Part shown: positions 10,553-63,219 of the stretch, piece by piece
How the letters are laid out: every line of letters begins with the position of its first letter
Numbering within the stretch: position 1 is the stretch's first letter
DNA from: Acidobacteriota bacterium
GTDB lineage: Bacteria; Acidobacteriota; Blastocatellia; UBA7656
Reading direction: 5' to 3'
DNA: 64,000 nucleotides
NCBI GenBank assembly: GCA_038040455.1
Contig: JBBPIH010000008.1
Span: 88,006-152,005 of the forward strand
Position numbers and translations under genes: made by a program
Notes under the pieces: model-generated
What the model was told of the DNA's origin: nothing
Databases searched by the model: none
Seen by the model: the letters and a program-made list of their open reading frames with translations, nothing else

Positions 10553-11974
10553 TTGCTGAACTTTGACGGCAGCAGCTTGCAAAAGCAAGAGAGAAACCGT
10601 AAACAAAGACCAACTAAGCAGGGATGGAGGAAGAGAATGCACATTAAACGTACTTCCCTTTTCGCGCTTGCTCTGATACTCACCGGGGCAGTCGCGGCGC
10701 GGGCGGATAAGGTAGACGACTATCTCAAAGCCGAGATGCAGAGACAGCATATTCCCGGCATCTCGGTCGCCGTGCTTAAGGACGGTAAGATCGTCAAGGT
10801 AGAAGGGTACGGCTTAGCGAATGTTGAGCTCAACGTTCCGGCCAGGCCTGAGACCGTCTACAAAATTGGCTCCGTCAGTAAGCAGTTTATTGCCTCGGGA
10901 ATCATGCTCCTTATCGAGGACGGCAGGATTAGCCTCGACGACAAGATCAGCAAGTTTCTCGAGGGATCGCCCGACACCTGGAAAGAGATTACCGTTCGAC
11001 ATTTGCTGACCCACACATCAGGAATCGTTCGCGAGGCTCCCGGCTTCGACCCGCTCAAGATCCAGAGTGATGCGGATGTTATCAAAACTGCCTATCCTTT
11101 GCCGCTCCGATTCGCGTCCGGCGAGAAGTGGGAGTATTGCAATGTCGGGTACTTTACGCTTGCCGAGATCATCCGCAAAGTTACCGGCAAGCCATGGGGC
11201 GATTACCTCAAAGAGCGATTGTTCTTGCCGCTCGAAATGAACGCCACGCGCACCACCAGCATGACTGAGCTTGTTGAAAACCGCGCAAATGGATATCTGT
11301 GGAGAAACGGCAAGCTGCAAAACGCAGACATCTATTTCGCACTCCGCCCAAGCGGGGCGTTTCTCTCTACCGTTCTTGATCTGGCGAAGTGGGATGCCGC
11401 GCTCTACACCGACAAGCTTCTCAAGCAGTCCGTCCGCGACCTGATGTGGACGCCGGTGAAACTCAACAACGGCACAACGCATCCTTACGGCTTCGGATGG
11501 GAGCTGGAGTCAGTAGGCGGTCACAGGCAGGTGCATCACGGCGGTTCGCTTCCGGGGTTTCGCGCCAACATCGCGCGATTTGTTGACGATAAGCTGACCG
11601 TCGTCATCTTGGCCAATAGCGACAACGCCAATTCGAGTGCTCTTGCACTCGGCGTCGCAGCGCTTTACATACCCGGATTAATTCCTGAGCGTGTCGCTGC
11701 AAAGGTCGACCCAAAAGTGCTTGATGCTTACGCGGGGCAATATCAGCCGAATCCGTCGACAGTCTTGACGGTCACACGCGAGGGCGACAAGTTGATGGTG
11801 CAACAGGGGTCGAGTGAGAAGCGAGAGCTGGTGCCGGAGAGCGAATCCAACTTTTTCATGCCCGAGAATCGTCAAGTGACCTATAGCTTCGTCAAAGATG
11901 AAAAGGGACAAGTCACACACCTCGTGGTTCAAAGAGAAGGCCGGGAAATAGGCAGAGCAAAGAGAATCAAATGA
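10553..11974 (+). CDS. Serine hydrolase, class C beta-lactamase / penicillin-binding-protein family
   Basis: SxxK active-site motif in YKIGSVSKQF and a YxN-like region. The likely true start is MHIKRTSLFALALILTGAVAA (signal peptide) near 10637. Confidence 0.8.
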   Translation: MLNFDGSSLQKQERNRKQRPTKQGWRKRMHIKRTSLFALALILTGAVAARADKVDDYLKAEMQRQHIPGISVAVLKDGKIVKVEGYGLANVELNVPARPETVYKIGSVSKQFIASGIMLLIEDGRISLDDKISKFLEGSPDTWKEITVRHLLTHTSGIVREAPGFDPLKIQSDADVIKTAYPLPLRFASGEKWEYCNVGYFTLAEIIRKVTGKPWGDYLKERLFLPLEMNATRTTSMTELVENRANGYLWRNGKLQNADIYFALRPSGAFLSTVLDLAKWDAALYTDKLLKQSVRDLMWTPVKLNNGTTHPYGFGWELESVGGHRQVHHGGSLPGFRANIARFVDDKLTVVILANSDNANSSALALGVAALYIPGLIPERVAAKVDPKVLDAYAGQYQPNPSTVLTVTREGDKLMVQQGSSEKRELVPESESNFFMPENRQVTYSFVKDEKGQVTHLVVQREGREIGRAKRIK

Positions 11975-20127: not shown

Positions 20128-20580
20128 GTAGCATAGACTTTAGTCTGTGCCGGCGATTGCGCTTGTAAGCGGACCGACCCGACACAGAGGTATAGTAGTC
20201 GGTCAGATTGAATCTGATACGTGCGTTCGCCGATTTTCACCCACGCTGGTGGTGGATCGTTCGTACTCACCTCCACCGATGCCTCGACCAGCTTTTTCTG
20301 AATCCCACCAACGCAGTTGGTGGATTGTTCATACACTGCCTACAACCAGACTGCGGTGGAATAGGCTGAGTATGAAGCATCCACCAACTGCGTTGGTGGG
20401 ATTCGGGATGAGAACGCCGACGTCTGTCTGTAGGCTGAGTATGAAACATCCACCAACTGCGTTGGTGGGATTCCAAAGGCTATCCTTGGGCATCACAATC
20501 ACGGGACTACTAGCCTGTAGTCTCTGCCCGGTAACTCCGCTACATCGCAATCGCCGGGTACAGACTAAAGTCTATGCTAC
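20128..20580. mobile_element. MITE-like non-autonomous element: about 33-bp terminal inverted repeats flanking a cluster of family A hairpin repeats
   Basis: The left end gtagcatagactttagtctgtgccggcgattgc (20128-20160) is a near-perfect inverted copy of the right end gcaatcgccgggtacagactaaagtctatgctac (20546-20580). The interior carries at least 3-4 copies of the CCACCAACGCAGTTGGTGG hairpin unit in both orientations. There is no long ORF. It lies between the addB-like start and the rmuC stop. Confidence 0.5.
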
Positions 20581-37369: not shown

Positions 37370-37590
37370 GATGACACACAAGTATTCAGGTGCAATCCCA
37401 CCAACGCAGTTGGTGGTGCGTTCATACTCAGCCTACACGCGACACTGGGCGGGGGTCCCGAATCCCACCAACGCAGTTGGTGGATCGTTCATATCCGACC
37501 TGGCTATGATCAGCCGGAAAGTGAATCCGAGCGGAGAGTTAGGCTGGGTATGAACGAACCACCAACTGCGTTGGTGGGATTATCGTCACT
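37370..37590. repeat. Family A palindromic repeat array (CCACCAACGCAGTTGGTGG hairpin units, mixed orientation)
   Basis: Copies at about 37393-37437 and 37458-37500 (one orientation) and 37546-37585 (inverted). Shared flanks are gaatccc...ttgttcatactcagcctaca. The leader caggctgctgaaaaagtcgatgacacacaagt is conserved with the array at 47360. Confidence 0.6.
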
Positions 37591-47389: not shown

Positions 47390-47860
47390 AGTGCTCACGG
47401 CTAATTCCACCAACGCAGTTGGTGGTTTGTTCATACTCGGCTTACACGGACGCGAAGCCCCGCTCCCGAATCCCACCAACGCAGTTGTTGGATTGTTCAT
47501 ACTCAGCCTTAATCTGGACTGGCGCGCGCGCCCGTCCCGAATCCCACCAACGCAGTTGGTGGATTGTTCATACTCAGCCTACATCTGGACTGCCGCGCGC
47601 CCGTCCCGAATCCCACCAACGCAGTTGGTGGATTGTTCATACCCGACCTCGGATGCAACAGCCATTCTGCAGTTCTCTAGTCCCCATCAACGCAGTTGGT
47701 AGAGGATTTGGACCCGACCTGCCAAGGCGACCTCACTGACACTTTAGGCTGGATATGAACGATCCACCAACTGCGTTGGTGGGATTCGGGACGCGCGCGC
47801 GCCAGTCCCGTTGTAGGCTGAGTATGAACGATCCACCAACTGCGTTGGTGGGATTGTGGG
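47390..47860. repeat. Family A palindromic repeat array (largest cluster, at least 7 units, both orientations)
   Basis: Units at about 47407, 47468, 47540, 47612 (forward), a degenerate one at about 47690, and inverted units at about 47752 and 47822. The inter-unit segments are similar to each other (tctggactgScgcgcgcccgtcccg). Confidence 0.6.
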
Positions 47861-51885: not shown

Positions 51886-52746
51886 ATGGAAATCATCCGC
51901 ATACTAAACAATCGTGAAATAGCAGTAGTAATATGGCTATCGCTTCTCTTCCTTTGGGCACTATCCATTAGTTCTGTTAAACATTCTTTTTTTGGCTTTT
52001 TAAAGGCATTCTTTGTCAAAACAATTATTGTACCCCTCGCAGTAATGCTACTCTACGTCCTTCTAATGGTTCTGGTTTCCAAAAGAATAGGGTTTTGGGA
52101 TACATCGGCATTGAAAGATACGATTCTTTGGACGGTAGGTGCCTTTGCAACGTTCTTAAGTTTGAATAAAGTCGTTGGAGATGAGAGTTTTTTTAGGAAC
52201 GCTATTTTGGATAACCTCAAATTGGTTTTGATACTTGAGTTTATTGTCAATCTGTATTCTTTCAACCTCATCCTTGAATTAGTATTAGTGCCGATTGTCA
52301 CTTTCATTGTACTGCTGAACTTGGTTGCAGAATCGAAACCAGAATACAAGCACGTAAGGATTGTCCTCGCTTATGCTTTAGGCCTTTTCGGCCTTGTGCT
52401 TATTGTTTTCACATTCCGAGAGCTCTCTGTTGATTTGCAAAACTTTGCTACTCTTGATAAGACGCTAAGGGATTTCTTATTACCAGCGCTCTTTACGATT
52501 GTCTTCTTGCCCTATGTTTATTTGATGGCGTTATACATGCAGTATGAAAGACTCTTTCTTCGTATAGATTTTGCTAATGCAAATGCAGAGCTTGCGAGAT
52601 ATGCGAAACGGAAGATTCTTCAGGCCTGCCATCTTAATTTGTCAAAAGTAAACAAATGCTCGAAAAATGGAGGACTGCCGAAACTAAACGGTAAGGATGA
52701 TGTACTAGCCTTAATAAGAACGGCACTAAGTCCAACAGGCGCTTAA
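51886..52746 (+). CDS. Multi-pass membrane protein of unknown function in a sharply AT-rich (foreign-looking) segment
   Basis: At least six hydrophobic helices (IAVVIWLSLLFLWAL, IIVPLAVMLLYVLLMVLV, ILWTVGAFATFL, LVLILEFIVNLYSFNLILELVLVPIVTFIVLL, LAYALGLFGLVLIVF, LLPALFTIVFLPYVYLMALY). Codon usage and GC (about 35-40%) differ strongly from neighbouring genes. Confidence 0.5.
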   Translation: MEIIRILNNREIAVVIWLSLLFLWALSISSVKHSFFGFLKAFFVKTIIVPLAVMLLYVLLMVLVSKRIGFWDTSALKDTILWTVGAFATFLSLNKVVGDESFFRNAILDNLKLVLILEFIVNLYSFNLILELVLVPIVTFIVLLNLVAESKPEYKHVRIVLAYALGLFGLVLIVFTFRELSVDLQNFATLDKTLRDFLLPALFTIVFLPYVYLMALYMQYERLFLRIDFANANAELARYAKRKILQACHLNLSKVNKCSKNGGLPKLNGKDDVLALIRTALSPTGA

Positions 52747-55770: not shown

Positions 55771-55847
55771 CGGGGGAATATGGTAGCGGCGGGAGGACTT
55801 GAACCTCCGACCTTGGGGTTATGAATCCCACGCTCTAACCACCTGAG
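55771..55847 (-). tRNA. tRNA with CAU anticodon (tRNA-Met; possibly tRNA-Ile2 if lysidine-modified)
   Basis: Reverse complement GGCGGCGTAGCTCAGGTGGTTAGAGCGTGGGATTCATAACCCCAAGGTCGGAGGTTCAAGTCCTCCCGCCGCTACCA folds as a cloverleaf: 7-bp acceptor stem, anticodon loop TTCATAA and T-arm GGAGG/CCTCC with loop TTCAAGT. The CCA end is encoded. Confidence 0.8.
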
Positions 55848-55891
55848 CTACGCCGCCATATCCTTTACTATCTATTACTTACGCGCTTGGC

Positions 55892-56971
55892 TCACTCTGT
55901 CTTTTCGAGCCTTTGTGGCATATTTGTGGCAGGTTTTTCTTTGCCACGCCTCACAGCCGCATCTACCGCCCTGCGTTTGCCGTCATCAGTCGCATGAACA
56001 TAGCGCATGGTTGTCCCTATGTCCACGTGACCCATCACCTCTCTAACCGCGCTCACCGGAGCACCCCCGTCGACTGCCCGAGTGCCAAAGGTGTGGCGCA
56101 AGTCATGAAACCGCAGGTCAGTTATTCCGGCATCGCGCAGCGCGTTGCGCCAGGCCGTCTTAACATCTTTGATCGGACTACCAGTTCGGGAGTTCCCAAA
56201 GAGGTAGCCGGATTCCTTAGCATATTCGCAGAGCCTATGGAGCAGCGGCTTCAAATCGGGGTGAATCGGGACACTGCGAGGCTTCCCTGACTTAGTAGCC
56301 GAAGTCAGTTCGATGGAGTCTCTAACCGCATCGATCTGGCTCTTATGCAAAGACAGGATCTCAGTCCGTCTCATCCCGGTATGCAGACCAATGAGAACGA
56401 TGTCCATCAAGTGGCGGCGCCGCCCATCGAGTACCGCGAACAGTCGTTGCTCCTCATCAGGTTTGAGATATCTCAGAACCTGATTGCCCGTCCCAAGCAT
56501 TTTTATGCGCATGCATGGGTTTACTTCGACCTCGCCACGCTCAATAGCCAGGCTAAAGATTCGGGAGAGCAGCTGAATTTCCCGATCGACCGACGCCGGC
56601 GATCGGGAACCACCTCGCCCATTGGTTGTCTGCCGCCTGTGCTGTCGGAACTGCTCCACGTTGAACCTGCTGATCTCTCGCATCTTCTTAATCTTGAAGT
56701 ACGCGAGAATTGCTTTCGACCGGGATCGGTCATTCTTCCAAGATCGCTTCTCTGACTTAGCCCACGGCAGGTAAACCCGCTCAACAAAATCCTTCAGAGT
56801 GATGTTGCTTGGTTCACCACCGTAACGCCCGCTGAAGATTGACTCCCTGGTCATGGCTTCTGCTTGTTCGGCTTGCCACTTGGTACGAGCTTCTGGAATC
56901 GCCCGCCCGTATCGCACGCCGCGAATTGAGAATCGGTAATACCATTTCTGGTTTCGTTTATAGACCGGCAT
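55892..56971 (-). mobile_element. int: Tyrosine-type site-specific integrase (phage integrase family)
   Basis: C-terminal catalytic motifs HDLRHTFGTRAVDGG...VREVMGHVDIGTTMRYVH (R...HxxR...Y). An N-terminal SAM-like domain is present. It lies 44 nt from the tRNA. Confidence 0.85.
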
Positions 56972-57329
56972 CGAGATCCTTCCTTTCTCGATTCATAGCC
57001 AGCCGGCTCAGGGTGATTTTACCCGTAGTCGCAACCGACAGTCTATGCGCTGGATGGGTATCGGGCTGAGGCAGTGTCCAGCTAATCAGCTCGGACAGGA
57101 GAAAGATTGGCCTTCCCCCGGCATACCGCACTGGAATCTTTCCTTGGGAGATCCAGGTCGACACAGTCTTAGGCTTGACTCGTAAAAGCTCGGCCGCCTC
57201 TTCCACTTCAAGAAACACGATCTGCAGCAACTTCAGGATCTGTTTCGCGGTCATTCTACGAGAGAGGATATTCGCGACTTCGGTTGCTATCTCGTCCAAT
57301 TCGTTCGCGGGATACTGATTATCGAACAT
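56958..57329 (-). CDS. Excisionase/AlpA-like helix-turn-helix DNA-binding protein
   Basis: LLRVKPKTVSTWISQGKIPVRYAGGRPIF matches the excisionase-family HTH. It overlaps the integrase start, as xis-int pairs do. Confidence 0.5.
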   Translation of the reverse strand: MFDNQYPANELDEIATEVANILSRRMTAKQILKLLQIVFLEVEEAAELLRVKPKTVSTWISQGKIPVRYAGGRPIFLLSELISWTLPQPDTHPAHRLSVATTGKITLSRLAMNRERKDLDAGL

Positions 57330-57545
57330 GCGAATTGCTCCAGACTATCGCTTCCGAGGCATCCCAAACCTTCCGGTCCAACAATATGGCCCGATTAGAG
57401 ATGCGACAGAGCATGCGCCAGGAGAAGATGATTATAGCAGACGCATAGTTTTTGTCTATACATCTATTCAGGGATGCATTTTGGAGGTGTGAAGTCGGGT
57501 TTCTGAGAACAGGGAATGTCTTTCTAGGCGCTTGTCCGCTTGTTT

Positions 57546-57944
57546 CTAGGATCGTGACCTTGGGGCGTTAGATTTGCGCTGCACTTTTCTCTGAGCTTTG
57601 ATTTCCTTCAGCGCCGCTTCGAACCGTGAGCGGTCACGCTCCTGTTCAACTCTGATTTCTTCTGCTGCATATTGGCTGACCAGGCCGCTCTTAGTGGTTC
57701 CACGTAGGAGAGCGACCGACGCAAAGCCCTCATCCAGGTCCTGTCTGATTCTCACCGTCATTGTTAGGCGCCTACGCTGCTCAGTTGGTAGTTTTGGCCT
57801 GGCCATCCCAGTTCCTCCTCCGTCGGCAGATTGATCGCCGGCTATTTTGCCCGCTATTGCCGGAACACTGATTCCTCGGAGTATACGGCGCGCGCGCTTG
57901 GCGTGCAACACAAAACAGCGTGCATCTAGTTGGTGCCTAGTCAA
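57546..57944 (-). CDS. Hypothetical protein (possible small DNA-binding protein of the integrative element)
   Basis: Basic protein. An internal start MARPKLPTEQRRRL is plausible. No firm motif. Confidence 0.3.
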   Translation of the reverse strand: MTRHQLDARCFVLHAKRARRILRGISVPAIAGKIAGDQSADGGGTGMARPKLPTEQRRRLTMTVRIRQDLDEGFASVALLRGTTKSGLVSQYAAEEIRVEQERDRSRFEAALKEIKAQRKVQRKSNAPRSRS

Positions 57945-58123
57945 AAACTATAATTTGCACTTGAAGTTGAATCGTGATTTATGTAATATCCGCGAGTACG
58001 GTTTTTGCCTATACAAAAACGCAACAACTCAGAAGGATGCGTTCGGCCCGCCGTCAACCATAGCGGGCTGACTCGGCTAGCTGTAGGACGCCGTGAAAGC
58101 GCGAAGGCTCACGCGAGGAGACT

Positions 58124-58582
58124 ATGGAAACCGAAAAGCAATTCGATGGAATCGTGGGGCGGTCCGTGCCGATGCGCGCAATGACTAACACCATCCTCAA
58201 GGTCGCTCCCCACAACTTCACCGTGCTCATCCGTGGAGAATCCGGTACCGGTAAGGAACTCGTGGCCCGCTCCATACTAAGCAACTCAAAGCGCCTCAAG
58301 GGGCCCTTTTTGCCCGTCAACTGTGGTGCTATACCGGATGGTCTTCTGGAAGCCCATCTGTTTGGCCATCAGAAAGGGGCCTTCACCGGAGCTTCCTCCG
58401 ACAAACCCGGAATCTTCGAGGCCGCCAACGGCGGCACCATCTTCCTCGACGAAATAGGTGAAATGCCCCTTGCTATGCAAGTCAAGCTGCTCAGAGCCCT
58501 CCAGGAGAAAGAGGTAGTGCGAGTAGGTGCTACGAAGTCAACCAAAATCGACGTACGGCTCATCGCCGCCACAAACGCATCG
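58124..58582 (+). pseudogene. Fragment of a sigma-54-dependent activator (AAA+ central domain only, truncated after the ...IAATN motif)
   Basis: Walker A GESGTGKELVARSI, GAFTGA sigma-54 contact motif and Walker B GTIFLDEIGEM are present. The receiver and C-terminal HTH are absent. The reading frame degenerates after RLIAATN at about 58578. Confidence 0.6.
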
Positions 58583-58584
58583 CT

Positions 58585-61248
58585 ATGCAATATGTCGAAG
58601 GCGAAACTCTCGCCTGCCGCATCGAGCGTAGGCCGCTTGAGATCGAAGAAGTCTTGGAGATAGCCGGGCAGGTTGCAGACGCGCTCGCGGAAGCCCATTC
58701 GCATGCCATCATTCATCGCGACATAAAGCCGGCAAACATAATGATCACCTCCCGCAGGCAGGTTAAGGTGATGGATTTCGGGCTGGCTAAGACTATCGCG
58801 CGACAAGAGGTCATGGATAGTCAAGCACAGACTGAGAGTTTGTTGAGCGAGCCGGGGATGATCTTAGGCACATTGCCTTATATGTCGCCTGAGCAAGTGA
58901 GCGGGGAGCCTGTAGACGCGCGCAGCGACATATTCAGCTTCGGGGTTATGTTGTATGAGATGGCAAGCGGACATAAGCCGTTCGCCGCAGAGAGCGCAGC
59001 GGCGACCATTTCAGCGATATTGACGCGCGAGGCAGCGCCGCTTGCCAGGTATTCACGTGAAGCGCCAGGGGAGTTGGAGCGGATAGTAAGTAAAGCTCTG
59101 CGTAAAGACCGAGAGGAGCGATATCAAGCAATAAAGGAAATGGCTCTGGATTTGAAGAGCCTGAAGGAGGAGTTGGAGTTCGAGGCCAAGCTTGAGCGGT
59201 CGCTGCCGCGGGATTCGGGCCGCCCAGGAAGCGCCGCCGCAATCAGCGGTCGGGTTTCAATTAGTTCATATCCACAGCCAGCAGAGACTACAGAGGTTTC
59301 AACAACAAGGACCGCACCAACATCTAGATATTTCATCAGCAAGATCGGTCAACATAAACGAGTGGCGGTCACCGCCCTGGCGGCAGTCGTTATCGCGGCA
59401 GCGGCGGTCTTCTTTTACGCCAGCAGAGCGCCCGCGTTTACTGAGAAAGATACTATCCTGCTCACTGATTTCCTTAATACAACAGGGGACGAAGTATTTG
59501 ATGGGACGCTCAAGCAGGCGCTCGCGGTGCAACTAGGGCAGTCTCCGTTTTTTAGTATCTTCCCGGAGCAGCGTGTCCGCGAGACGCTCCGTTACATGGA
59601 GCGCTCGCCCGACGAACGCGTAACTAAGGAGATTGGGCGGGAGATTTGCCAACGCGAGGGCATCAAAGCGCTGCTCACGGGTTCGATAGCGAGCCTCGGC
59701 AGCCATTATGTGATTACGCTGGAGACCCTGAATAGTCCGACCGGCGATGCGCTGGCGCGTGAACAAGTCGAGGCTGAGAGCAAGGAGCAGGTGATTAGCA
59801 AGCTGGGGGAAGCGGCGACGAAGTTGCGCGAGAAGTTGGGCGAATCTTTAAGTTCGATCCAGAAGTTCGACACGCCTCTCAGCCGGGCGACCACCTCCTC
59901 GCTTGAGGCTCTTAAGGCTTTCACCTTGGCGTTCGAGCATGACCTTAAAGGTAAGCCCGCGGAATCGATCCTATTTGCGAAACGCGCGGTCGAGCTTGAC
60001 CCTAATTTCGCCTCGGCCTATGCCAACCTAGCTGTGTCGTACTTTAACAACCAAGGCCCGTCTGTCGTGTCTGAGCAGTACGCCGCGAAAGCTTTTGAGC
60101 TGCGAGAGCGAGTCACCGAGCGGGAGAGGTTCCTTATCACTTCGATGTACCACACATTCGTAACCAAAGACTTGGACAAGGGGATCGAAGTAATGGAGTT
60201 GTGGAGCCAAACCTACCCCCGTGACTATGCCGTACGGAACAATCAGGCTAACGCATACGTGAGGGTCGGGCAGTACGAAAAGGCCGTCGAACAAGCGAGC
60301 GAAGCCAATCGCCTCAATCCGAACGGCACCCACGCGTACTTTAACTTAGGGTGGGCATACAGGGCGCTGGGCCGCTACGACGAAGCGAAGGCGACTATTG
60401 AGCAGGCCCACGCGCGCAACCTAGATACCTGGGTGATCCATTCGACCGCCTATCTGATCGCCTTCGCTGAAGGAGACCAGGCGGAGATGCGGCGGCAGCT
60501 TGAGTGGGCGAGCGGCAAGCCGAGCGAATTCAACTTCCTGGATTTGCAAAGCTGGACGGAGATGTTTGCCGGGCGCTATCGCCAATCCCAGGAAACGGCT
60601 CGCCGCGCCGTCGAATCCGCGCAAAGCCAGAACTTAAAAGCGACGTGGATCATATCAACTTCTGCGGTTCGGGATGCGCTCGTCGGCAATTGCCAGCGGG
60701 CGAGGGCAGAAACGGCGAAGGCACTTGCGACAGCGCCGGGCGCAGAGCCTCCGCCAATCGCAACCCTCGCGTCGGCTCTGTGCGGAGATGTCGCCCGCGC
60801 GCAATCTATCATTGACGATCTGGCTCGACGAAATCCCACAAGCACTGTGATAAACGGCATCTGGGGGCCAGTGATCGGCGCGGCCATTGAAATTGGTCGT
60901 GGCAATCAGGCTGAAGCAATCCGGCTATTGCAAAAGGCAAAACGCTATGAGATGGGGCAAGAGGCCGGGTTCTGGCCCACTTACATGCGCGGCCAAGCTT
61001 ACTCGCGGCAAGGCTCCGCGACAGAGGCGATAGCCGAGTTCCAAAAGATCATAGACCGCCGAAGCGTCTTACCGGCTGACATACTCTACCCACTCGCCTA
61101 TTTAGGGCTGGCGCGCGCCGCAGCTAGCGCTGGCGACACGGATAGAAGTCGCCAAGCATACGAAGATTTCTTCGCGCTGTGGAAAGATGCCGACACGGAC
61201 ATACCCATACTCCAACAAGCTAAGCAAGAGTATCAAAAGCTCCGATAG
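58585..61248 (+). pseudogene. N-terminally truncated Ser/Thr protein kinase with TM helix and TPR-repeat extracellular domain, fused out of frame to the sigma-54 fragment
   Basis: Starts mid-kinase at the hinge (M)QYVEGETL. It has HRDIKPANIM, DFG and SPEQ motifs but no Gly-rich loop or VAIK lysine. This is followed by TM VAVTALAAVVIAAAAVFFYA and multiple TPR units. The fusion junction is at about 58575-58585. Confidence 0.65.
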
Positions 61249-61386
61249 GAAGTGGTATCACAATGGTATTGCTCGTCACGCATCAACAGTGCAACAGAAT
61301 GACCGCAAGGCGACGGGTGCTGCGCTATGTCCGGCTTACTAAATTAAGTGATAGTTTATCGCGAACATGACATCTCATGAGGTGCG

Positions 61387-62421
61387 ATGAACTCTAAACG
61401 ATGGGCGCAGATCAAGCCGATCTTCCATGCGGCGGCTGAGCGGCCGGCGGATGAGCGTGCCGCATTCATCAGATCCGAGTGCAACGGTGATGAGTCATTG
61501 GCCGTAGAGATCGAGTCGCTGTTTGCTGCGCATGACCAGGCCGGCTCGTTCATTGAAGGATTCCCAAGCGACGAGACAACCGTAGCGCTCGAAGACCTGG
61601 CAATAAAGCCGTTGATAGGCCTGCAGATCGGCCCTTACAAGGTCATCAGCCTCATCGGTCGTGGCGGCATGGGCGAAGTTTATCTCGCCCAGGACAGCAG
61701 GCTCGGCCGCAAGGTCGCTCTCAAACTGCTTCCTGCCCGGTTCACAGCACTAGGCGAGCGAGTGCGGCGGTTTGAGCAGGAAGCACGCTCAGCATCAAGT
61801 CTTAATCATCCGAACATCATCACCGTCCACGACATCGGCAAGATTGAAGGCAAGCGTTACCTGGTCACAGAGTATGTAGAGGGGGAGACGCTGAGGCAGC
61901 GTATGGAGAGCGCCCCACAGCAGAGGATAAAACTGAGCGAGGCGCTTGAAGTTGCCACGCAGGTGGCGGCTGCGCTTGCCGCGGCCCACGAAGCGGGAAT
62001 AGTGCATCGAGACATCAAGCCGGAAAACATCATGCTGCGCACGGATGGCTACGTCAAAGTATTAGACTTTGGGCTGGCCAAGCTTGCCGAGCCGAAAGCA
62101 ATCGACACTGCGGCTCCGACTCTGCCTAAGGTAGAGACGGAGCCGGGCCTGATGATGGGCACGGTCAGTTACATGTCACCGGAGCAGGCGCGCGCGCTGA
62201 TGGTCGATGCACGGACTGACATCTGGAGTCTGGGTGTAATGATTTATGAGATGGCGTCAGGCCGCCAGCCATTCGAGGGGGAAACAGCCAGCAATGTGTT
62301 GTCATTGATACTACAGAAAGACCCTTTACCGCTTGCTCACTCATCGCCCGAAGTTCCGGGTGAGTTGGAGCGGATATGCGCAGACGGTAAGCAGAGCCAA
62401 TCTTCAGCGAGTCGGGTTTGA
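61387..62421 (+). CDS. Ser/Thr protein kinase (complete catalytic domain, abrupt C-terminal end), with conserved N-terminal sigma-interaction-like extension
   Basis: GRGGMGEVYLA, VALKLL, HRDIKPENIML, DFGLAK and SPEQ are all present. The N-terminus ERAAFIRSECNGDESLAVEIESLFAAH is typical of kinases paired with ECF sigma factors. It ends right after ELERI, where homologs continue. Confidence 0.75.
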   Translation: MNSKRWAQIKPIFHAAAERPADERAAFIRSECNGDESLAVEIESLFAAHDQAGSFIEGFPSDETTVALEDLAIKPLIGLQIGPYKVISLIGRGGMGEVYLAQDSRLGRKVALKLLPARFTALGERVRRFEQEARSASSLNHPNIITVHDIGKIEGKRYLVTEYVEGETLRQRMESAPQQRIKLSEALEVATQVAAALAAAHEAGIVHRDIKPENIMLRTDGYVKVLDFGLAKLAEPKAIDTAAPTLPKVETEPGLMMGTVSYMSPEQARALMVDARTDIWSLGVMIYEMASGRQPFEGETASNVLSLILQKDPLPLAHSSPEVPGELERICADGKQSQSSASRV

Positions 62422-63219
62422 TCCAGCTAAGGAAACAGTCACGGGTCAACCGGTCTGGATCACTCAAGGTTCGAGGCGGGCAAGTAATCCAAACCTCTCG
62501 CCGACGGTGAATGGTTAGCCTTTGATTCTCAGGGAGGCACACAGGATGATCTATTCGTCATCAGGCAGGACGGCACGGGGCTTCGCCAGTTGACCGATGA
62601 CATCTATAAGGACCGCAAACCCACCTGGTCGCCGGACGGTAAACGGATTGCCTTTTTCTCCGATCGGAGCGGCAAGTGGGAGATCTGGACACTCAACTCA
62701 GATGGCAGCGGACTACAGCAACTCACTTTCACCTCGGGCACAGTCAACCACCCTGTTTGGTCACCCGATGGTACCCGCCTCGCATACCGTAATTTGGGTG
62801 GCAGCCCCTCCATTATAGAGGTCGGAAAGCCCTGGCAGGAGCAGTCGCCGCAGAGACTTCCCCCGATGAGTGATTCAATTGACTGGCCTCCATCGTCATG
62901 GTCTCCCGACGGGCGGAAACTTGCTGGGTGGCGTGTTTTACGCAATGGCATTTTTGTTTATTCTTTTGAATCTCAGCAATACGAGAAGCTCACGGATTTC
63001 GGATTACTTCCCGTCTGGTTGAGTGATAGCCGCAGGCTGTTATTTCGAAGCTTCGGGAAGCTCTACCTGGTGGACAGCCAGTCCAAAACAATTCACGAGG
63101 TGCTATCAGTCGCTCCGCATGATTTTGGCGGTCGATTTGCGCTCTCTCGGGACAATCGCCTGATCTATTTTAGTCTTGTCACGACGGAAGCGGACATCTG
63201 GCTGATGACCCTAGAGTGA
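62422..63219 (+). pseudogene. TolB-like beta-propeller (WD40-like) domain remnant, multiply frameshifted; probably the decayed C-terminus of the upstream kinase gene
   Basis: ORF 62590..63219 has TolB repeats (WSPDGKRIAF, WSPDGTRLAY, WSPDGRKLAG). The same frame extends upstream without a start (LADGEWLAFDSQGG...). A further frame (62333..62518) carries NPNLSP, joined by frameshifts. No TM helix or linker lies between the kinase and the propeller. Confidence 0.5.

Follow-up and report, generated by a model that had tools for sequence, protein, structure and literature searches.

A blunt deletion scar in a decayed mobilisable element at the 5' side of an acidobacterial tRNA-Met gene

The 64-kb stretch analysed here, hereafter the window, comes from a soil-dwelling member of the Acidobacteriota (Blastocatellia-like). 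It carries a tRNA-Met gene beside which lie an integrase gene, an excisionase-like gene and a fragment of a sigma-54 activator gene that passes abruptly into the middle of a Ser/Thr kinase gene. Very probably, these are the remains of a decayed mobilisable element in which one non-homologous deletion fused the stumps of the activator and kinase genes; the element may also have supplied the 5' part of the tRNA. The junction itself is a blunt non-homologous deletion scar; it does not encode a fusion protein and is very unlikely to be an assembly chimera. The original prediction, made from the sequence of the window alone, had placed the tRNA(CAU) gene and, at its 5' side, the integrase and excisionase genes, and ARAGORN, Rfam and Pfam bear out this placement (Table 1). 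Throughout, L numbers denote compared contig loci and P numbers homologous proteins.

Homologues of the two stumps fix the break from either side. In blastn comparisons, the sigma-54 relatives in L010-L013 and L015 all stop matching the window at position 58576, the last base of the Asn codon of the IAATN motif. The nearest full-length kinase relative, P0002 in L016, begins to match at 58578 by blastn and at 58579, its residue 159, by tblastn. Alignment leaves the parent of origin of base 58577 uncertain and reveals no useful microhomology at the break, which points to illegitimate, end-joining-like recombination. The reading frames of the two parents differ, and the sigma-54 frame continues for 27 codons into kinase DNA before it meets a stop at 58663. 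A switch into another frame within about 10 nt had been described in the original prediction; the break and the frame change are real, but the break is sharper than that (58576/58578).

On the activator side, the stump keeps Walker A, GAFTGA and Walker B. The last part of its AAA+ domain is absent, as are the lid and the HTH, and with them the complete domain set of a sigma-54 activator (AAA+ with GAFTGA, lid and HTH). Its closest homologues, P0122 (93% identical), P0123 (86%) and P0124 (80%), have the same start residue as the window open reading frame (ORF), which indicates that nothing is missing from the 5' end of the window gene and that its product lacks an N-terminal regulatory domain. 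After IAATN, all three go on with RDLKGMISSGQFRQDLYYR. The intact form in L033-L035 is a protein of 357 aa with an AAA+ domain, AAA_lid_14 and HTH_8, encoded directly upstream of xis-int, and a PspF-like activator is thus a regular companion of the window integrase family.

The relatives also reveal what lies beyond the break. L010-L013 match the window at 80% nucleotide identity from 57546 to exactly 58576, and L010-L012 then continue with the 3' end of the activator gene, orf95, orf209, a gene for a NikA/MobC-like protein (PF05713/PF21983), a gene for a relaxase of 794 aa (PF03432, with a weak MobP1 match) and an ORF of 85-91 aa. The stop codon of a chromosomal glutamate dehydrogenase gene follows about 90 nt later. 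This gene order identifies the relative as a small integrated mobilisable element. Relative to L010-L012, the window is without approximately 4.8 kb of element DNA, which includes the relaxase and mobilisation protein that define an integrative mobilisable element (IME). The relaxase has no match among PLSDB plasmids.

On the kinase side, full-length homologues from Blastocatellia, Pyrinomonadaceae and other Acidobacteriota are mostly 950-1060 aa long among the matches listed, compared with 887 aa in the window. Approximately 158 N-terminal kinase residues are missing, with the glycine loop, catalytic lysine and helix C among them, and the window kinase is thus without a complete Hanks-type catalytic domain (glycine loop and VAIK lysine). 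What remains resembles the acidobacterial Hanks-type Ser/Thr kinases with TPR, being 73% identical to full-length P0002 and having the same TPR tail; it differs from them in lacking the first 76 kinase-domain positions and the N-terminal extension. With relatives that continue into the rest of the activator, MobC and relaxase on one side and kinase homologues of full length on the other, the original view of the junction as a scar of illegitimate recombination or deletion at the right side of the element stands.

These comparisons suggest a simple history. The element would have carried, in order, the integrase, the excisionase, a small ORF and the PspF-like activator, followed, as in its relatives, by two ORFs, MobC and the relaxase. 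One deletion would then have joined activator codon 151, just after IAATN, to approximately codon 159 of a Ser/Thr kinase-TPR gene. It would have taken at least 4.8 kb of the element (the activator 3' end, the two ORFs, MobC, the relaxase and the terminal ORF), the far attachment (att) site, at least 0.47 kb of the kinase 5' end and anything between. Both stumps lie on the same strand and in their natural order, so that one deletion between two unrelated points suffices, and the loss was presumably a single event. The kinase was presumably a chromosomal host gene, and both it and the activator gene would now be dead as pseudogenes. The int-xis module looks intact in its sequence, yet, with no partner att site detectable in the window, it has probably become stranded.

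Several results weigh against this history. We did not find an undeleted copy of the locus, which leaves both the extent of the deletion and the place where the kinase gene originally lay to be inferred. In the scan for an undeleted locus or an empty site with the integrase as query, genome contigs yielded only L017 and one distant match, and metagenomes yielded only L019 and partial matches. Among the matches listed, no intact kinase relative is nearer than 73% at the amino acid level, and the neighbourhood of this relative, P0002, is unrelated to the window. Given that the relative lies in a different neighbourhood, the kinase could have been cargo of the element.

An alternative that we regard as improbable is that the element's own integrase cut at a secondary site, that is, that the break arose by aberrant excision. 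Imprecise excision by the integrase had been raised in the original prediction, and we do not favour it, as the break falls within a gene of the element instead of at an att site. The argument in its favour is an 8-mer, GCCACAAA, that occurs three times in the 64 kb: two copies make up a conserved repeat in the 3' end of the integrase gene, and the third, at 58568-58575, ends one base before the break. Its role as an integrase site is a guess, and the motif was spotted post hoc. By chance, 1.67 copies are expected in the window. Moreover, at the break GCCACAAA merely encodes AATN, L010 has GCCACGAA in the same place, and the kinase side carries neither a similar motif nor a tRNA-like core.

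It is still harder to see the break as the point where an element inserted in the kinase gene naturally ends, with no deletion at all. The kinase is indeed interrupted exactly where element-like DNA starts, but the element side stops in the middle of an activator gene that continues in relatives. In addition, the window does not contain the missing 5' part of the kinase gene; a single further kinase N-terminus, at 61387-62421, belongs to a paralogue that is 53% identical to the remnant and overlaps it.

We give scarcely any weight to the idea that the junction is an assembly chimera of two unrelated contigs. The window probably comes from a metagenome-assembled genome (MAG), and the 179-aa product P0121 is annotated in an Acidobacteriota MAG at NCBI, which speaks for mis-assembly; the original prediction had asked for a check. 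We retrieved contigs from per-run (Logan) assemblies by exact look-up of the integrase and of the 179-aa product. Contigs assembled separately from SRR28961253/255/257/265/266/267 all span the junction and are 100% identical over 1.6-5.6 kb, with the sole exception of one mismatch in one contig. A chimera would have required each of the six assemblies to have its own reads across the same false break, and the identity of the junction in all six makes an assembly error very unlikely, even if the six run accessions are close together and perhaps belong to one study with a shared population. A second junction variant, suggested by the unmatched tails of contigs L006 and L008, was discarded when the tails proved to be Illumina adapter.

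A functional sigma54-AAA::kinase fusion gene, the remaining alternative, has next to no probability: although the two pieces share a strand without internal stops and the kinase remnant keeps an 887-codon ORF, their frames differ and the sigma-54 frame stops 27 codons past the break, the activator is without lid and HTH and the kinase without its N-lobe, and PF00158 occurs in none of the 120 listed kinase homologues, so that the combination is neither one ORF nor a conserved architecture of the kind that the original prediction had named as its possible refutation.

In many respects this locus illustrates ordinary genome decay, and as a deletion scar in a decayed mobilisable element the junction is nothing out of the ordinary. 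It is an example of integrated elements eroding through deletions that take adjacent host genes with them. Two products annotated in databases, the 179-aa 'sigma-54 interaction domain protein' and the 835-aa 'kinase', are revealed by it to be gene stumps. The sole part worth follow-up is the recurrent placement of the integrase at the 5' side of the tRNA, which coexists with a 3' mode in close relatives.

The integrase and tRNA genes both lie on the minus strand, the 3' end of the integrase gene faces the tRNA 5' end, and 34 nt separate the integrase stop codon from it. The original prediction had correctly called this orientation atypical for an attB at a tRNA 3' end; moreover, it is recurrent in the window integrase family. 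An integrase stop, a conserved spacer of approximately 33-34 nt and the 5' end of a same-strand tRNA follow each other in six other loci (L017, L019, L027, L029, L032 and L038). L017, from the Blastocatellia MAG JBASRM01, is a decayed copy of the same element, 93-95% identical at the nucleotide level, in which int and xis have suffered internal deletions. The integrase of L019 is 95% identical. L027, on the 107-kb contig k141_517367 of ERZ27257127, and L029, on the 27-kb contig k141_2105393 of ERZ27257050, have 69% identical integrases in the 5'-side arrangement, and L038 has the arrangement with a different tRNA. In L032, a 68-69% identical integrase and the spacer are followed by only approximately nt 1-49 of the tRNA. 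The classical arrangement, in which the integrase 3' end faces the tRNA 3' end, is found in relatives at 44-66% identity, namely in L033-L035, in L030 (where only tRNA nt 33-77 are present) and in the second integrases of L017 and L029.

On balance, we favour the view that this group of integrases carries the 5' part of the tRNA (approximately nt 1-49) beside int, and that the element integrates upstream of a rebuilt tRNA. The window tRNA would then be a hybrid att junction, to which the element contributed nt 1-49 and the host the T-arm and 3' end. Deprived of its own promoter, the rebuilt tRNA would be transcribed from that of xis-int. The whole arrangement would mirror the usual one. The archaeal element pTN3 offers a precedent: it integrates into the 5' half of tRNA-Leu, with a minimal site of nt 2-44, and parts the rebuilt tRNA from its promoter (PMC5495485). 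Integration into a tRNA 5' half with loss of the promoter has been called seldom seen in bacteria (PMC8371274). As in pTN3, the tRNA 5' part appears to travel with the element, and the rebuilt tRNA would sit off its own promoter and downstream of the integrase gene; contiguity of the tRNA 5' part with element DNA at the integrase-proximal junction is found in the window and in all six loci with the 5'-side arrangement. Unlike pTN3, whose integrase gene is split on integration (the 'suicidal' type), the window has an intact integrase of classical bacterial kind with a separate excisionase. An attP within the integrase gene, as in pTN3- and SSV-type elements, does not apply here, as the window gene ends intact before the tRNA. 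The likeness is therefore one of mechanism and not of family.

A rather unlikely but serious competitor is that attP held a complete tRNA copy, so that integration was classical and both ends were once full tRNAs, or that the tRNA was cargo; neither involves replacement of a 5' half. In its favour, the homology common to the window, L017 and L019 extends from the integrase across the entire tRNA and breaks off at the tRNA 3' end, beyond which L019 has an unrelated host gene. In the loci searched, no far-end fragment turned up that could tell the two models apart. Three results speak against a complete copy. L032 keeps the integrase and the spacer with only approximately nt 1-49 of the tRNA. 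Compared with the tRNAs of the 93-95% identical relatives L017 and L019, the window tRNA has only four changes, which are compensatory and all lie in the T-stem, downstream of nt 49. Finally, in L033, where the 5' side of the tRNA is host DNA, a canonical promoter (TTGACA-17-TATCAT) ends 21 nt upstream of the tRNA; in pattern scans, the 34-nt spacer of the window contains no promoter of this kind, and the strongest site lies upstream of xis.

The replacement of the tRNA 5' half, which we continue to favour, also has results that count against it. Searches of L027, L029, L032 and L038 over the 10 kb upstream of the integrase revealed no tRNA 5' fragment at a far end, and the outer end of L010 has no tRNA-Met fragment; without such a fragment, the model rests on one junction type only. 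In the window, the fragment would have been lost with the deletion or lie out of range. Furthermore, in a distance tree (from which L019 was omitted on account of its frameshifted translation), 5'-side and 3'-side integrases form no separate clades. The window itself offers no help with the limits of the element: as the original prediction had noticed for the tRNA 3' end, neither the tRNA, whole or in part, nor its flank recurs in the 64 kb, the longest match being 13 nt, which is chance level. With only chance repeats of the tRNA, the element limits cannot be set from the window. The suggestion that the tRNA 3' end be used as the att probe was probably wrong, since the 5'-side arrangement predicts a tRNA 5' fragment.

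IMG/VR gave no match to the integrase. With the tRNA 5' part as query, a scan picked up two proviruses, which are unrelated and adjoin a tRNA that has a promoter of its own. No phage relative of the integrase exceeds 30% identity.

A more sweeping proposal may be put forward tentatively, although we lean slightly against it in this full form: that in one group of acidobacterial tyrosine integrases the element routinely provides the 5' half of the target tRNA gene and replaces its promoter, that close relatives, at 58-66% identity, use the 3' mode at the same tRNA-Met, that both can flank one tRNA (L017, L029), and that, with the far end of its element gone, the window tRNA is tied for good to the xis-int operon of a dead element. 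If true, this would add to bacteria an integrase family with 5'-half tRNA targeting, which reviews call rare there. Its members with both orientations are close enough for one to ask how an integrase system switches its target side. A further question is whether a host can depend on an element's promoter for a tRNA. Under the 5'-half model, the window copy of the tRNA would now depend on the promoter of the remnant.

Three of the related loci have features of their own. In L017 (912-3377) and L029 (9622-12713), two integrase-excisionase modules converge on one tRNA-Met, one at its 5' side and one at its 3' side. L033 (GCA_035652355.1, DASRDY010000121.1; 2461-5129) is a minimal module of 2.7 kb with no more than a sigma-54 activator, xis, int and tRNA-Met; its neighbours are a peptidase S9 gene on one side and a gene for a giant HAMP-repeat protein on the other, and no far-end tRNA fragment is present. 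In L032, at approximately 11340-11400 and about 200 nt past the tRNA-Met 5' fragment, a stretch ending in GGGGTTCGAATCCCTGCCTCCCAGCCA resembles the 3' terminus of a further tRNA or of tmRNA, a hint that att remnants are stacked there.

Table 1. Positions of the tRNA, element genes, predicted sites and gene stumps in the window.
Feature	Position	Strand	Basis and remarks
tRNA-Met, anticodon CAU	55781..55857	-	ARAGORN; Rfam RF00005, 66.4 bits; sole tRNA called
Direct repeat TGCCACAAA, two copies, in integrase 3' end	55912..55930	-	Six-locus alignment, motif search
Tyrosine integrase, 359 aa, apparently intact	55892..56971	-	PF00589, E 1.8e-28
Excisionase-like HTH_17 gene, 123 aa	56958..57329	-	PF12728, E 2.6e-10; 14-nt overlap with integrase start
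Near-consensus sigma-70-type promoter, TAGACA-16-TGxTATAAT, 11/12 (predicted)	57431..57458	-	Pattern scan; upstream of xis-int
Small conserved element ORF	57546..57806	-	86 aa from ATG; up to 132 aa from TTG at 57944
Sigma-54 activator ORF including read-through	58124..58663	+	PF00158 positions 1-151/168, E 2.7e-60
Sigma-54 activator 5' stump, 151 codons	58124..58576	+	No N-terminal regulatory domain, PspF-like layout
Deletion junction	58576..58578	+	blastn end points, alignment
Ser/Thr kinase-TPR 3' remnant	58578..61248	+	ORF from ATG 58585, 887 aa; Pkinase from position 77/263; then TPR

The integrase scores 99.9 bits against the PF00589 gathering cut-off of 27.1 and covers profile positions 2-170/172. 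Its uninterrupted ORF contains the catalytic residues R, HxxR, H/W and Y (in MRRTE, HDLRHT, MGH and MRYVH), and it has 835 homologues at E<=1e-40, chiefly in Blastocatellia and other Acidobacteriota. The excisionase-like gene reaches 25 bits against the TIGR01764 'excise' model, which is under the cut-off of that model, and xis and int overlap likewise in L027, L029, L030, L032, L033 and L038. The predicted promoter upstream of xis-int presumably drives xis, int and the tRNA; a pattern scan found no terminator-like site between the integrase gene and the tRNA. The small element ORF has a weak DUF6290 match (E 0.0034) as its sole family match. It marks the start of the homology with L010-L013, and its product is 95% identical to that of the L017 remnant. 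The TGCCACAAA repeat is kept at the DNA level in all related loci, even where the integrase protein diverges, and may possibly represent arm-type sites of the integrase. Its opposite strand reads TGGCAT-N5-TGGCA, a loose match to a sigma-54 promoter.

Considered as a whole, the module resembles tRNA-associated islands and IMEs in having a tyrosine integrase and an HTH_17 excisionase-like gene beside a tRNA. The likeness to IMEs extends to the relatives, which have a MobC/NikA-like protein and a relaxase and no conjugation machinery in the 6 kb seen, whereas the window itself is without the mobilisation half. Unlike classical 3'-end islands, the window element lies on the tRNA 5' side and has no displaced 3' fragment. 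The activator shares with PspF-type proteins a start at the AAA+ domain as well as Walker A, GAFTGA and Walker B, and its intact relative in L033 is complete; it differs from PspF in its score (154 bits against an equivalog cut-off of 443.55) and in being borne by a mobile element beside xis-int, with no sigma-54 promoter identified. A scan for GG-N10-GC sigma-54 promoters gave a single 9/11 match, antisense in the integrase 3' end, where approximately 0.3 are expected, and we do not rely on it; the same scan of L010 gave none of note.

The activator gene is broken differently in nearly every relative and is intact only in L033-L035. The same frameshift is present in the four independent assemblies L010-L013 (219 + 145 aa), another splits the gene in L014 (181 + 114 aa), and L015 has a tandem duplication of approximately 15 nt. 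P0125 diverges directly past IAAT, almost at the break point of the window.

The kinase relative in L016 is a mosaic with respect to window positions 58578-61249, with 87% nucleotide identity over the C-terminal 1.85 kb and 67.5% over the kinase domain. Beside the P0002 gene, at 5884-6324 of L016, an ORF of 146 aa matches both Pkinase and D-Tyr-tRNA deacylase and is apparently a chimeric fragment in a kinase-rich region. In the window, a paralogous Ser/Thr kinase gene at 61387-62421, 53% identical to the first, loses homology after ELERI-A at approximately 62385; three in-frame stops follow, and PD40 beta-propeller repeats begin in the same frame from approximately 62500 (the whole wreck spans 61387-63219). 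This second kinase gene with its PD40 fragment is further decay of the region. We considered whether the two window kinases might be halves of a tandem duplicate and rejected this, as they are 53% identical paralogues that overlap in the kinase domain.

Elsewhere in the window, a family of hairpin repeats with the core CCACCAACGCAGTTGGTGG is present in 13 copies in three intergenic clusters (20305-20468, 37398-37577 and 47391-47855). The copies stand in direct and inverted order, none are expected by chance, and at 47391-47855 they form units of approximately 70 nt; they have the look of repetitive extragenic palindromes (REP) or miniature inverted-repeat transposable elements (MITE). An ORF of 286 aa at 51886-52746 encodes a membrane-like protein with no Pfam match and lies in a low-GC pocket (38-41%, compared with 55-65% around it); it is probably foreign DNA.

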